A DNA stretch of 2,837 nucleotides from the IMG/VR virus record IMGVR_UViG_2541047795_000005; one strand, 5' to 3'. The notes below the pieces were generated by a model. The model was not told the origin of the DNA. It searched no databases and was given only the letters and a program-made list of their open reading frames with translations. Position numbers and translations under genes: made by a program. This stretch comes from a virus (Duplodnaviria > Heunggongvirae > Uroviricota > Caudoviricetes). Shown in pieces: positions 1 to 2,837 of this stretch (the first letter of the stretch is position 1; the number at the start of each line of letters is the position of its first letter).

Positions 1-186
1 TCTGCAAGCGCGGCGGCTGCTTCTGCCACTGCATCAGCTAACAGTCAAAAAGCAGCAAAAACCAGTGAAACCAACGCAAAGGTGAGCGAAACAGCGGCTG
101 CGAACTCAGCGAAAGCATCGGCAGCAAGCCAGACGGCAGCTAAAGCAAGCGAAGATGCAGCCAGAGAGTACGCAAGCCAGGCTGCG
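1..186 (+). repeat. Ala/Ser-rich low-complexity coding repeats (fibre shaft region) inside the tail-fibre CDS
   Basis: Translation SASAAAASATASANSQKAAKTSETNAKVSETAAANSAKASAASQTAAKASEDAAREYASQAA shows reiterated A-A-K/S-A-S units built from GCN/AGC/AAA codons. GC is locally high (hand count about 53-58% on 60-nt blocks). The approximate end of the repeat is judged by eye. Confidence 0.55.
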
Positions 187-1506
187 GAGCCGTATAAATA
201 TGTCTTACAGCCGCTGCCTGATGTGTGGATACCATTTAACGATTCGCTGGATATGATTACGGGCTTTTCGCCATCATATAAAAAAATTGTTATTGGTGAC
301 GATGAAATAACGATGCCTGGCGACAAGATTGTTAAGTTTAAACGTGCATCGAAAGCAACCTATATTAACAAATCTGGTGTGCTGACAGAGGCTGCCATTG
401 ACGAGCCACGATTTGAACGTGATGGCCTGCTTATTGAGGGGCAAAGAACTAATCTTCTGCTTAATTCAACAAATCCATCTAAATGGAATAAGTCAGGCAA
501 TCTGGAACTCACAGAAATATCCACGGATTCTTTTAATTTTACTTATGGGAGATTTACTGTAAAAGATACTCTTATTGGTCAGACAAGTGCTATTAATATC
601 GTAACGGTTTCTGGCAGTAAAGGGTTTGATGTCACAGGTGATGAAAAATATGTGACCATTTCATGCCGTGTAAGAAGTGATGTTGAAAATGTAAGGTGTC
701 GTTTAAGATTTGAACACCATGATGGTTATACTTACACTTTTTTGGGAGATGCTTACCTCAATTTATCAACACTTGTAATTGATAAAGCTGGTACTGCTGC
801 AGACCGTATTATTGCAAAGGCTGTAAAAGATGAGGTTACTGGTTGGATTTTCTATCAGGCTACAATTAATGCACTAGATACAGAGAGCATGATTGGTGCG
901 ATGGTTCAATACGCTCCTGTAAAAGGTTCAGGCACAGCATCTGGAGACTATCTGGATATCGCAACTCCACAAGTGGAAGGTGGATCAAGTGCTTCGTCAT
1001 TTATTGTAACTGATATAACTGCAAGCACTCGCGCAAGCGATATGGTGACAGTCCCAATCAAGAATAACCTTTATAATCTTCCTTTTACGGTTCTTTGTGA
1101 GGTACATAAGAACTGGTATAAAACGCCAAATGCAGCGCCACGTGTTTTTGATACCGGCGGTCATCAAACCGGAGCGGCTATTATTCTTGGCTTCGGTCGT
1201 TCAACAGATTACGACGGATTTCCTTATTGCGATATTGGAGGAGCTAACAGACGGGTAAACGAAAACGCATCGCTTGAAAAAATGGTTATGGGGATGCGTG
1301 TAAAGTCAGAGCAGTCTACGTGCTCAGTAAGTAACGGGCATATATCCAGCGAAACAAAAACCACATGGTCCTGTATTCAGAACACCGCAATTATCCGTAT
1401 TGGAGGCCAGACTACAGCCGGGTTACGTCATTTATTTGGTCATGTCAGGAATTTCAGAATATGGCACAAGGCATTGACTGATGCTCAGGTGGGGGAGTCA
1501 ATCTAA
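1..1506 (+). CDS. Phage tail-fibre / receptor-binding protein, 5'-partial (gene starts upstream of the window), with a C-terminal LamG/concanavalin A-like lectin-type signature
   Basis: Frame 1 is open from nt 1 with no stop until TAA at 1504-1506, so the GTG at 82 given by the ORF track is internal, not the true start. The translation begins SASAAAASATASANSQKAAK..., Ala/Ser-rich low-complexity repeats typical of fibre shafts. The C-terminus ...GLRHLFGHVRNFRIWHKALTDAQVGESI (nt 1420-1503) resembles the terminal strand motif of LamG-type jelly-roll domains. The segment ...GVLTEAAIDEPRFERDGLLIEGQRTNLL... resembles phage structural proteins. The gene is followed by a translationally coupled downstream gene. 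Confidence 0.8.
   Translation, partial: SASAAAASATASANSQKAAKTSETNAKVSETAAANSAKASAASQTAAKASEDAAREYASQAAEPYKYVLQPLPDVWIPFNDSLDMITGFSPSYKKIVIGDDEITMPGDKIVKFKRASKATYINKSGVLTEAAIDEPRFERDGLLIEGQRTNLLLNSTNPSKWNKSGNLELTEISTDSFNFTYGRFTVKDTLIGQTSAINIVTVSGSKGFDVTGDEKYVTISCRVRSDVENVRCRLRFEHHDGYTYTFLGDAYLNLSTLVIDKAGTAADRIIAKAVKDEVTGWIFYQATINALDTESMIGAMVQYAPVKGSGTASGDYLDIATPQVEGGSSASSFIVTDITASTRASDMVTVPIKNNLYNLPFTVLCEVHKNWYKTPNAAPRVFDTGGHQTGAAIILGFGRSTDYDGFPYCDIGGANRRVNENASLEKMVMGMRVKSEQSTCSVSNGHISSETKTTWSCIQNTAIIRIGGQTTAGLRHLFGHVRNFRIWHKALTDAQVGESI
1491..1497 (+). promoter_or_regulatory. Shine-Dalgarno-like ribosome-binding site for the CDS starting at 1506
   Basis: GGGGGAG lies 8 nt upstream of ATG 1506-1508, and the ATG overlaps the upstream TAA stop (TAATG), which suggests translational coupling. 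Confidence 0.55.
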
Positions 1507-1787
1507 TGAAAGATTTAACACTCAAATTTGAAGACAGGGCCGACTTTTCGGCCTTTATGGAGAGTATTGGCTATTATGATGACGAGTCGATGCAGGATGA
1601 TATTCTTATCGACGTGATAGGTAACGTGTACAAAGAAACCGGAGAACTGACTGAAGATGGCGAACCGGTATGTGTTAAGGAAGACGGATATTTTGTAAAC
1701 GTGCGCATCATTAATGATTCGCAAATATCGTCATTATTCGATGAATACGTGGTTGCTGTTGAGCATCAACTTCGTGGCTGGATGTGA
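1506..1787 (+). CDS. Small strongly acidic hypothetical protein (93 aa), function unknown
   Basis: ATG at 1506 overlaps the stop of the upstream fibre gene, with an SD-like GGGGGAG upstream, and the ORF ends at TGA 1785-1787. By hand count it has 22 Asp/Glu against 7 Lys/Arg in 93 residues. I recognise no domain. It sits between two fibre-like genes on the same strand. Confidence 0.6.
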   Translation: MKDLTLKFEDRADFSAFMESIGYYDDESMQDDILIDVIGNVYKETGELTEDGEPVCVKEDGYFVNVRIINDSQISSLFDEYVVAVEHQLRGWM

Positions 1788-1796: not shown

Positions 1797-2330
1797 ATGG
1801 CTACATCGACAGTAATTCCTGATGACATCAAAACGCTAAAATCCGACGTTAGCAAATTAAAAAACGATCAAGGAAGCTACGCAACAAAATCTTATGTAGA
1901 CAATAAAGAAGAAATCGTTGGTGATTGGTATGTATCCTGTTATCAGAAGATATTGCCAACTACTGGAGCTATATTTAGGGGTAAGCTGCGCTCGACTAAC
2001 AAGACGGCTGGAATTGAAAACGCTTATAGTGAAATATACACCAGAAAAAGTATTGACAGTCCTGAAAACGCAATGGCGCGCCTTATCATAAATAATAACG
2101 GGAAAAGCATTTTCTGGGACTTTAGCGATCTTTATGGCGGAACGATGATTTTTCCCGGTGGCAGTGGTTACCTCAAAATGGGTAACTGTCTCATGTCATA
2201 TGGTAAGCGGGGAAGTAACGCGCTTATTAAATTTGATTATACCGACTCATTACAGATCAAATATGCCAATCATGGGTCGACCATGACATTAAACACGCAA
2301 GGAACCGCGTATGCTGGTGTGTCTGCGTAA
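1797..2330 (+). CDS. Tail-fibre-like protein (177 aa); probably the N-terminal body of a fibre gene whose C-terminal chaperone domain is now the separate ORF 2391-2837 (possible pseudogene fragment)
   Basis: Good SD and ATG start. The N-terminal segment DIKTLKSDVSKLKNDQGSYATKSYVDNK looks like a short coiled-coil or fibre motif. The ORF is AT-rich (about 33-37% GC on hand-counted blocks). It ends at TAA 2328-2330, and the same frame reopens immediately and runs into the S74 domain. From memory only, the pair loosely resembles short fibre-remnant ORFs annotated in cryptic E. coli prophages, but I cannot verify that and assign no symbol. Confidence 0.6.
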   Translation: MATSTVIPDDIKTLKSDVSKLKNDQGSYATKSYVDNKEEIVGDWYVSCYQKILPTTGAIFRGKLRSTNKTAGIENAYSEIYTRKSIDSPENAMARLIINNNGKSIFWDFSDLYGGTMIFPGGSGYLKMGNCLMSYGKRGSNALIKFDYTDSLQIKYANHGSTMTLNTQGTAYAGVSA

Positions 2331-2378
2331 TTATGGGGAAATTCCAGCCGTCCTGTTGTTTATGAAGTCGGTGTTGAT

Positions 2379-2383
2379 GGTGG
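2379..2383 (+). promoter_or_regulatory. Weak candidate Shine-Dalgarno (GGTGG) for ATG 2391
   Basis: GGTGG lies 7 nt upstream of ATG 2391. The same bases are in-frame codons (GVDGG) of the open spacer, so this may be coding sequence rather than a dedicated RBS. Confidence 0.3.
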
Positions 2384-2390
2384 CGCTTAT

Positions 2391-2837
2391 ATGTTCTATG
2401 CGCAGAAAAATACCGATAACACCTATATGTTAAGCGTTAATGGTGCATGTCATGCCACCGCATTTAACCAGCATTCCGACCGGGATCTGAAAGACAACAT
2501 TCAGGTGATCGATAATGCAACCGACCGCATCCGTAAAATGAACGGCTATACATACACGCTTAAAGAAAACGGTATGCCCTATGCTGGTGTCATTGCACAG
2601 GAAGCTCTGGAAGCAATCCCAGAAGTTGTAGGTTCCGCAATGAAATATCAGGACGGTGCGAGCGGATCGGAAGGTGAAGAAGGTGAACGTTATTACACAG
2701 TAGATTATTCTGGTGTTACTGGCTTGCTTGTTCAGGTAGCCAGAGAGTCAGACGACAGAATAACAGCACTGGAAGAAGAAAACGCAGAATTAAGACAAAG
2801 ATTATCTGTAATTGAGGCGGCGCTTGCGTCTAAATAA
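2391..2837 (+). CDS. S74-type intramolecular chaperone (self-cleaving) domain protein, 148 aa; likely the detached C-terminal part of the upstream fibre gene
   Basis: The translation contains the hallmark layout of the C-terminal intramolecular chaperone domain of phage fibres and endosialidases. It has HS-DRDLKDNI with Ser and Lys five residues apart (the Ser-Lys dyad), then GYTYTLKENG, then AGVIAQEALEAIPEVV, then YYTVDYSGVTGLLVQVAR, then a terminal coiled coil ITALEEENAELRQRLSVIEAAL. It is in the same frame as ORF 1797-2330. The first in-frame start after the TAA is ATG 2391, and the stop is TAA 2835-2837. Confidence 0.7.
   Translation: MFYAQKNTDNTYMLSVNGACHATAFNQHSDRDLKDNIQVIDNATDRIRKMNGYTYTLKENGMPYAGVIAQEALEAIPEVVGSAMKYQDGASGSEGEEGERYYTVDYSGVTGLLVQVARESDDRITALEEENAELRQRLSVIEAALASK
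2478..2834 (+). other. Peptidase S74 / intramolecular chaperone domain with predicted autocleavage site between Ser (2475-2477) and Asp (2478-2480)
   Basis: Motif match by eye to the S-D-x-x-x-K catalytic arrangement and the conserved GxIAQE and coiled-coil blocks of this family. Domain boundaries are approximate. Confidence 0.6.

Follow-up and report, generated by a model that had tools for sequence, protein, structure and literature searches.

Tail-fibre genes of unrelated phages share exchanged segments, as is the case for lambda Stf, P2 H, Mu S, and T4 gp37. Such exchange was reportedly described by Haggard-Ljungquist in 1992 and by Sandmeier in 1992/94. The modular exchange of the receptor-binding parts of tail fibres has long been established, and the gene described here, a side tail fibre gene in a 2,837-nt stretch of DNA of a tailed virus (IMG/VR record IMGVR_UViG_2541047795_000005; "the window," meaning the whole stretch, whose nucleotide positions are used throughout), is a well-resolved example of this known phenomenon. 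Engineered chimeras of lambda Stf exploit the same modularity (PMC11338833). O-antigen is the presumed receptor of the lateral fibres found in T5-like phages, Drexlerviridae, and Queuovirinae, which are encoded by loci that are hypervariable past the N-terminus (PMC8594841). Phage DT57C carries branched L-shaped lateral fibres, LtfA/LtfB, encoded by two tandem genes that both end in an autocleaving S74 chaperone (PMC4728585, PMC10713586), and a recombined divergent stretch of its LtfA switches the O-antigen specificity (PMC4728585). Finally, Rcc01080, the head spike fibre of the gene transfer agent RcGTA, mediates binding to capsular polysaccharide (PMC7296036, PMC10218006). The literature found on lambdoid Stf and O-antigen and on GC content and mosaicism of tail fibres held nothing specific to the present fibre type.

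The window corresponds to nt 6205-9041 of its source scaffold (GCA_000458705.1, scaffold KE700603.1; L174 below) and lies inside a lambdoid prophage. The first fibre gene, a side tail fibre gene of this prophage, is represented by its 501 distal codons, which comprise four independently assorting modules, namely a shaft, an N-scaffold, a cassette, and a C-scaffold (cf. Table 1). As in lambda and other lambdoid phages, this Stf-type gene is located downstream of J and lom, has a PF08400 N-terminus in its full-length relatives and a long Ala-rich shaft, and exchanges its C-terminal specificity part horizontally. It differs from Ur-lambda Stf, the distal module of which binds OmpC and is followed by Tfa, whereas the window fibre contains an internal domain resembling a carbohydrate-binding module (CBM), nested in a scaffold, and is followed by a 93-aa open reading frame (ORF) and a second fibre with an S74 domain. 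The same three-gene layout (large fibre, small ORF, and S74 fibre), together with the distal module, is found in the T5-like phages FGS017, KookSpook, BUCT632, and VSe12, as well as in Seuratvirus, Nonagvirus, and Warwickvirus, though the attachment part of the window fibre is lambdoid (PF08400) and not of the T5 collar-binding type. The LtfA/LtfB pair of DT57C was also considered as a direct analogue and was found to be an imperfect one, as LtfA ends in an S74 chaperone domain and the first fibre of the window has none.

Recombination breakpoints and independent assortment of modules

When the window was aligned with the fibre gene of lambdoid phage Tritos (L002), nt 1-449 differed at one position only (within nt 261-280) and nt 1069-1503 at none, whereas nt 450-1068 contained 241 mismatches. 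The divergent block begins with a mismatch at nt 450 and ends with one at nt 1068, so that 241 of the 619 nucleotides inside the cassette differ, as opposed to 1 of 884 outside (Fisher p=4e-106). A preliminary description of this DNA, made from the sequence alone, had suspected a recombination mosaic on the basis of shifts in GC content near nt 200 and nt 1000-1100, and the alignment to related fibres bears this out with abrupt drops of identity at 450 and 1068. The right junction, expected at nt 1000-1100, was located at 1030-1068. The left edge of the AT-rich block had been misplaced near nt 200, as both the Tritos comparison and the scan of third codon positions described below put it at nt 450.

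A different junction was found close to nt 200. The fibres of FGS017 (T5-like), ESCO3 (Nonagvirus), and KurtStettler (Seuratvirus) show no similarity to the window before nt 208-217 and match it thereafter, while Warwickvirus swan01 matches from about nt 166. By contrast, the shaft is 85-100% identical to the lambdoid Stf genes of loci L004 and L005, and its nt 1-207 gave no match with the T5-like and Queuovirinae fibres. Position 208 is thus an older junction, at which a lambdoid shaft is joined to a whole distal module that joins different fibre N-termini and is common to T5-like phages, Queuovirinae, Drexlerviridae, and a plasmid with phage tail genes. The junctions at 208 and 1068 therefore belong to two nested levels of mosaicism, i.e. 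the distal module beginning at nt 208 and the inner cassette of nt 450-1068, and are not the two ends of one insert, as had initially been proposed.

The breakpoints recur in other loci. A two-state hidden Markov model applied to 90 related loci resolved 45 distinct mosaic patterns; a switch falls into the 450-479 bin in 22 of them and within 1020-1079 in 30. Switches also cluster among the 90 loci at about nt 60, 210-260, about 1500, 1820-1920, about 2130, 2290-2470, and 2600-2670, and these extra junctions include the variable segment of the second fibre and patches in its S74 chaperone region.

At the protein level, the four modules combine freely among 120 homologues. The identities to the window fibre, listed in the order shaft/N-scaffold/cassette/C-scaffold, are 99/100/55/100% for P0011, 24/98/93/99% for P0003, and 96/99/93/46% for P0082. 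The C-scaffold assorts independently as well, since P0082, P0085, and P0109 all couple a cassette that is 93% identical with a C-scaffold that is only 46% identical. Among 5426 complete E. coli genomes, the N-scaffold is present in 1169, the C-scaffold in 880, and the present cassette allele in 177. At a threshold of 90% nucleotide identity, 90 cassette sequences group into 9 clusters, and different alleles are about 40% divergent at the nucleotide level, with saturated synonymous sites. In a sparse set of genome contigs comprising one genome per species, the cassette allele was not found, and a search of these contigs with the family alignment returned 5 loci only, mostly from Escherichia.

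Two of the related loci have an unusual setting. One (L090, NZ_OZ369442.1) is a 106-kb circular E. coli plasmid that carries the same cassette allele (92.6% identical, match at 6001-6607) in the same three-gene fibre layout, along with phage tail genes and a TacA/GNAT toxin-antitoxin pair, and is probably a phage-plasmid. The other (L094) is a 2836-nt contig of a Collinsella sp. metagenome-assembled genome with a 41% identical homologue of the distal fibre module. Its presence in an actinobacterial bin is probably a binning error and not a sign of a real host.

Two shifts in base composition with two causes

The GC contents of 60-nt blocks that had been counted by hand were all reproduced by computation: 53.3, 55.0, and 58.3% within nt 1-180, 36.7% at 241-300, 32.5% at 481-600, 36.7% at 661-720, 43.3% at 1021-1080, 51.7% at 1141-1200, and 46.7% at 1381-1440. 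Mononucleotide segmentation detected a single significant change point, at nt 192 (permutation p=0.007). Having called this point alone, the method proved too blunt a detector of the central dip, and the GC content of third codon positions (GC3) was used instead.

The whole profile might reflect only protein composition or position-specific coding constraint and be uninformative on origin. For the shift near nt 200 this explanation holds. The shaft (nt 1-207) contains 26 Ala and 12 Ser in 69 residues, the codons of which raise the GC content of first and second positions (0.65 at the second), while its GC3 of 0.42 is the same as elsewhere (0.41 in the N-scaffold, nt 208-449) and its GC content agrees with the amino-acid expectation (z=+0.75). 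The high GC content of nt 1-207 is therefore due to an Ala/Ser-rich composition, and the fall near nt 200, where the Ala-rich shaft ends, is an effect of amino-acid usage and no mark of foreign DNA. The junction that had been postulated there does exist as a homology junction at nt 208; it was the reading of the GC drop as its signature that failed. The same explanation does not extend to nt 450-1068, where the deficit lies at synonymous sites, 3.7 standard deviations under the amino-acid expectation derived from the window's own codon usage, and where another allele, in the same position and between the same flanks, has a GC3 of 0.37-0.38. As an account of the entire profile, protein composition is thus improbable, even if it is the alternative that we would dismiss last.

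A chance fluctuation in a short window must also be considered, as the binomial standard deviation amounts to about 6.4% per 60-nt block, the central contrast in total GC reaches only p~0.03, and segmentation misses the dip. At third positions the contrast is strong: GC3 of nt 430-1035 equals 0.228, compared with 0.409 in the flanking fibre segments (Fisher p=6e-5) and 0.407 in all other coding sequence of the window (Fisher p=2e-6). Moreover, when GC3 was scanned without regard to homology, the low interval that scored best was nt 442-1023 (GC3 0.216, scan permutation p<=0.005), which falls on the homology-defined breakpoints. We therefore regard chance as very improbable and the central dip as a real synonymous-site anomaly. 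Whether the originally described shift in composition is significant accordingly depends on the measure, in that the GC3 dip and the nt 192 change point are, and the central dip in total GC is marginal. The GC signal can mislead, as amino-acid composition alone accounts for one of the two shifts, which is separable from the other only by third-position analysis.

Replacement of the cassette by an old allele

Relative to Tritos, synonymous divergence (dS) inside the cassette is 1.84 and nonsynonymous divergence (dN) 0.37, with a dN/dS ratio of about 0.2, whereas dS outside it is 0-0.02. These values bear directly on the idea that the centre became divergent and AT-rich in place, through diversifying selection or targeted hypermutation, for instance by a diversity-generating retroelement. 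Receptor-binding domains are classic targets of diversifying selection, and the variation is indeed restricted to a single domain. Yet the low dN/dS ratio indicates purifying selection on old alleles, the boundaries of the cassette are sharp to a few nucleotides, and the same allele is found in unrelated phage backbones. With regard to a retroelement, the substitutions hit all bases, the window contains no template-like repeat of the cassette, and no reverse transcriptase is annotated in the neighbourhoods examined (L001, the complete genome NZ_CP018957.1; Tritos; and L174). Saturated dS between near-identical flanks means that an old allele was swapped in and rules out divergence in place, to which we assign next to no weight.

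Hardly more credible is the view that the mosaic is an assembly artefact of a draft scaffold with collapsed prophage repeats. It has some substance, as the N gaps of the source scaffold end 2 nt before the window, a 601-nt contig is misplaced, and nt 1840-2420 of the window are demonstrably a chimera of two alleles (see below). Nevertheless, nt 1-1500 are 100% identical to L001, where the fibre is an intact 794-aa ORF, and five more complete genomes equal L001 in identity (97.0%) and score when matched to the whole window. Furthermore, the IMG/VR loci L010-L013 are 100% identical at the protein level over nt 190-1503, and the cassette is 100% identical in strain FDAARGOS_536. The identical sequence in independent assemblies shows that nt 1-1503 are real despite their draft source.

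The least probable of the alternatives, a site-specific invertible segment of the Pin/Cin/Gin type, as in Mu, P1, and e14, would fit the PinR recombinase gene downstream of the fibre genes in Tritos and the tail fibre assembly gene fragments downstream in L001, but every allele has the cassette inside the gene, collinear and in frame, nt 450-1068 lack flanking inverted repeats, and none of the loci examined has an inverted alternative allele next to the gene.

The cassette is related to gene transfer agent head spike fibres

The cassette was identified by its match to NF048003 (NCBIfam, GTA_spike_fiber, phage head spike fiber domain), which covers aa 144-345 of the translated fibre, essentially the cassette itself, and profile positions 1-181 of 182 (58.9 bits against a cutoff of 36, E=8.8e-16). 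A phmmer search of PDB sequences returned the RcGTA head spike fibre Rcc01080 (6tb9, E=5e-4). The domain is therefore related to gene transfer agent head spike fibres. Its similarity to Rcc01080 lies in this above-cutoff match over the cassette and in a beta-rich, lectin-like predicted structure. Rcc01080 differs in being a single-subunit head decoration with its N-terminus anchored to a capsid pentamer, while the window domain is built into the interior of a tail-fibre chain, and the two sequences are distant.

In an AlphaFold2 monomer model of aa 64-501, only aa 154-328 reached a pLDDT of about 90, and this part is all beta, while both scaffolds remained below 50. Foldseek matched the model to 9b45 (E=2e-5), 8env (1e-4), 1gui (6e-4), and 1wzx (5e-3), and the matches include tail fibres of the Pseudomonas phages Pa193/E217 as well as CBM4 and CBM30. 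The cassette is accordingly predicted to form a compact CBM-like beta-sandwich. The likeness to CBM4/CBM30 and to the Pa193/E217 fibres is one of beta-sandwich fold and not of membership, given sequence identities of 12-18%, moderate TM-scores, and a monomer model with low-confidence flanks. We also considered the C-scaffold as a member of the ConA-like family Laminin_G_3 (PF13385), the last third of whose profile matches aa 445-497, and rejected this assignment as a mere resemblance, because its 17.6 bits lie under the gathering threshold of 27.6. An arrangement in which both scaffolds jointly make up a LamG-like domain that carries the cassette as an insertion was considered as a possibility, on which the low-confidence scaffold parts of the model do not bear.

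Since Rcc01080 binds a capsular polysaccharide, lateral fibres of the related phages are thought to recognize O-antigen, and a recombined stretch of DT57C LtfA switches O-antigen specificity, the cassette is, by analogy, very probably a receptor-binding domain, which would presumably set glycan specificity. A receptor-binding module with a foreign-looking composition, as had been proposed for the AT-rich centre, is thus very probably what this part of the gene encodes, in view of its GC3 of 0.23 and the NF048003 match.

Origin of the AT-rich allele

The low GC3 is specific to the present allele, since the Tritos/ESCO3-type allele within the same flanks has values of 0.37-0.38. Across the cassette alleles overall GC3 ranges from 0.24 to 0.37. 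The prophage genes form distinct layers, with GC3 of 0.56-0.69 in the lambdoid J and lom genes, about 0.40-0.44 in the scaffold, the 93-aa ORF, and the second fibre, and 0.23 in the cassette. The native genes of T5-like phages have values of 0.18-0.29, and the T5-like versions of the same module 0.19-0.30. In the phage collection, the sole record with the present allele is the T5-like Salmonella phage FGS017 (94.7% identity), the cassette of which looks native with a GC3 of 0.24, while its scaffolds, at 0.34-0.35, do not. Because a GC3 of 0.23 fits T5-like phages and neither its own scaffold nor the lambdoid tail genes, recombination most likely brought the present allele into the prophage fibre after it had evolved in a virulent-phage background rich in AT; both the donor background and the direction of transfer are deduced from these values. 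An apparent closer relationship of the cassette to FGS017 than of its flanks (dS 0.12 versus 0.37 and 0.47) was set aside as needing qualification, for the similar tract runs from about nt 250 to 1340.

Several points weigh against this picture of the cassette and its donor: (i) the dip in the centre is no more than marginal when total GC is counted (38.4% versus 44.5% in the flanks, Fisher p=0.03); (ii) several other cassette alleles are also rather AT-rich (GC3 0.24-0.31); (iii) the tract shared with FGS017 comprises about nt 250-1340 and not the cassette alone, with a divergent patch at 1000-1080; (iv) the donor is uncertain, as the allele, judged by protein identity, is also present on 60-72-kb contigs and in a 658-aa protein (P0003-P0007); (v) the AlphaFold2 model is that of a monomer, built from 44 sequences, which is unreliable outside the cassette and gives no view of the cassette in a trimer, and the Foldseek matches came without query ranges; and (vi) the ligand and the specificity role of the cassette are predicted from homology and modelled fold. 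With these points taken into account, we still consider it likely that the gene encodes a four-module mosaic fibre with an AT-rich, exchangeable, CBM-like cassette, which probably determines glycan specificity and would stem from an AT-rich donor background.

Gene order and genomic setting

The features of the window are listed in Table 1.

Table 1. Features of the 2,837-nt window
Feature	Position (nt)	Strand	Remarks
Terminal portion of the Ala/Ser-rich repeat shaft, lambdoid Stf-type side tail fibre	1..207	+	upstream continuation outside the window
N-scaffold of the distal fibre module, conserved; putative left homology arm	208..449	+	starts at motif QPLPDVWIPFND
Exchangeable AT-rich cassette, GTA-head-spike-fibre-like, predicted CBM-like beta-sandwich; presumed glycan-specificity determinant	450..1068	+	
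C-scaffold of the distal module and stop codon, weak LamG-like tail; putative right homology arm	1069..1506	+	
93-aa ORF between the fibre genes, conserved, hypothetical	1506..1787	+	phrog_1361, E=2.5e-46
Second fibre gene with C-terminal Peptidase_S74 intramolecular chaperone domain	1797..2837	+	PF13884, phrog_4563

The first fibre is encoded in frame 1, which has no stop codon between nt 1 and the TAA at 1504-1506 and extends past the left end of the window. In L001 the same fibre is encoded by an uninterrupted ORF, whose N-terminal part matches that of L174, and in both L001 and L174 the genes for gpJ and Ail/Lom are situated directly upstream. A match to PF08400 (prophage tail fibre N-terminal) was found outside the window, in a 109-aa N-terminal fragment of L174, and most full-length homologues have this domain. 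RefSeq splits the L001 fibre gene (5122-7506) into two pseudogene fragments, 5128-5494 and 6490-7506, which is probably an annotation artefact of the repetitive Ala-rich shaft.

This side tail fibre gene has no directly adjoining Tfa chaperone gene. It is followed by the phrog_1361 ORF and then by the second fibre gene, and tfa (tail fibre assembly) gene is present only as fragments, farther downstream, in L001. The ATG of the 93-aa ORF overlaps the stop codon of the first fibre (TAATG). The ORF gave no Pfam match, and a hypothetical ORF of 91-93 aa lies between the fibre genes in all related loci examined, i.e. in lambdoid phages, T5-like phages, Queuovirinae, Drexlerviridae, and the 106-kb plasmid. 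Its product may be an adaptor or a chaperone.

Downstream of the fibre genes, at 9729-16534, L174 contains a four-gene ZnuA/ABC-3 metal transporter followed by genes for Usp, a porin, and pyruvate:ferredoxin oxidoreductase, which we take to resemble a sitABCD cargo at a Rac-type uspF-ompN-ydbK position. In L001, the same fibre belongs to a prophage that adjoins ompW/yciE/trpA instead.

Part of the second fibre gene is a chimeric consensus in the source assembly

The product of nt 2331-2834 contains the Peptidase_S74 domain PF13884 (53.7 bits against a cutoff of 22, E=2.5e-14), and phrog_4563 (346 aa) aligns with the gene both before and after an in-frame stop codon. The corresponding coding sequence is intact, with 346 aa, in L001, L002, and L004. 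Within nt 1840-2420, 171 sites vary among the window, the L001 allele, and the 601-nt contig, and at each of them the window carries one allele or the other (94 and 77 sites) with no unique base. The two alleles are randomly interleaved (87 runs versus 85.7 expected), and the in-frame TAA at nt 2328-2330 is composed of the T of TTA from one allele and the AA of CAA from the other. This segment is therefore a chimeric collapsed-repeat consensus and its TAA is artefactual. Readings of the stop codon as a pseudogene mutation, or of the sequence as a rare allele, were both rejected as products of this chimerism. It also explains why the "allele" has no close database match, the best ones being 86.6% identical in nucleotides (complete E. 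coli genomes) and 82% identical in amino acids (IMG/VR).

Upstream of the window, at 4067-6204 of L174, the fibre gene contains two N gaps, and between them lies the 601-nt contig with the other second-fibre allele. The gap that ends 2 nt before the window comprises 95 N. This assembly break is probably due to the repetitive Ala-rich shaft. The chimeric zone also contains an 18-nt inverted repeat (1998-2015 and 2340-2357, 17/18 complementary, 324 nt apart), which is weaker in L001. By a rough estimate, about 0.003 such pairs would arise by chance in a window of this size. Lying where it does, the repeat is probably meaningless.

Proposed mechanism and significance

The scaffolds, which are nearly identical in hundreds of genomes, may serve as homology arms for general or phage-encoded homologous recombination, which would replace the cassette domain precisely and in frame, such replacement being possible because the arms flank the cassette on either side. 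The swap would presumably change the surface glycan that is bound, i.e. O-antigen, capsule, or lipopolysaccharide core, and leave the assembly of the fibre intact. Both the recombination route and the glycan-binding function are what we infer from the arrangement of the modules and from the relatives of the cassette.

A more far-reaching interpretation, to which we give slightly less than an even chance, is that nt 450-1068 constitute a natural, domain-precise plug-and-play site for glycan modules and that the AT-rich allele reached it by a fairly recent transfer from a T5-like phage to a prophage, across lifestyles. Under this interpretation, the boundaries of the slot would be the same in lambdoid prophages, telomere phages, phage-plasmids, virulent T5-like phages, Queuovirinae, and Drexlerviridae. 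The analysis defines exact, recurrent, in-frame exchange boundaries (nt 208, 450, and 1068) for a fibre family with about 2570 detectable homologues that is present in more than one-fifth of complete E. coli genomes, and these boundaries could help to predict host range and to design chimeric fibres for phage therapy or DNA-delivery particles. If the plug-and-play interpretation is true, the fibres of prophages and virulent phages share a single pool of specificity domains, and host range would be predictable and engineerable at the level of a single domain.

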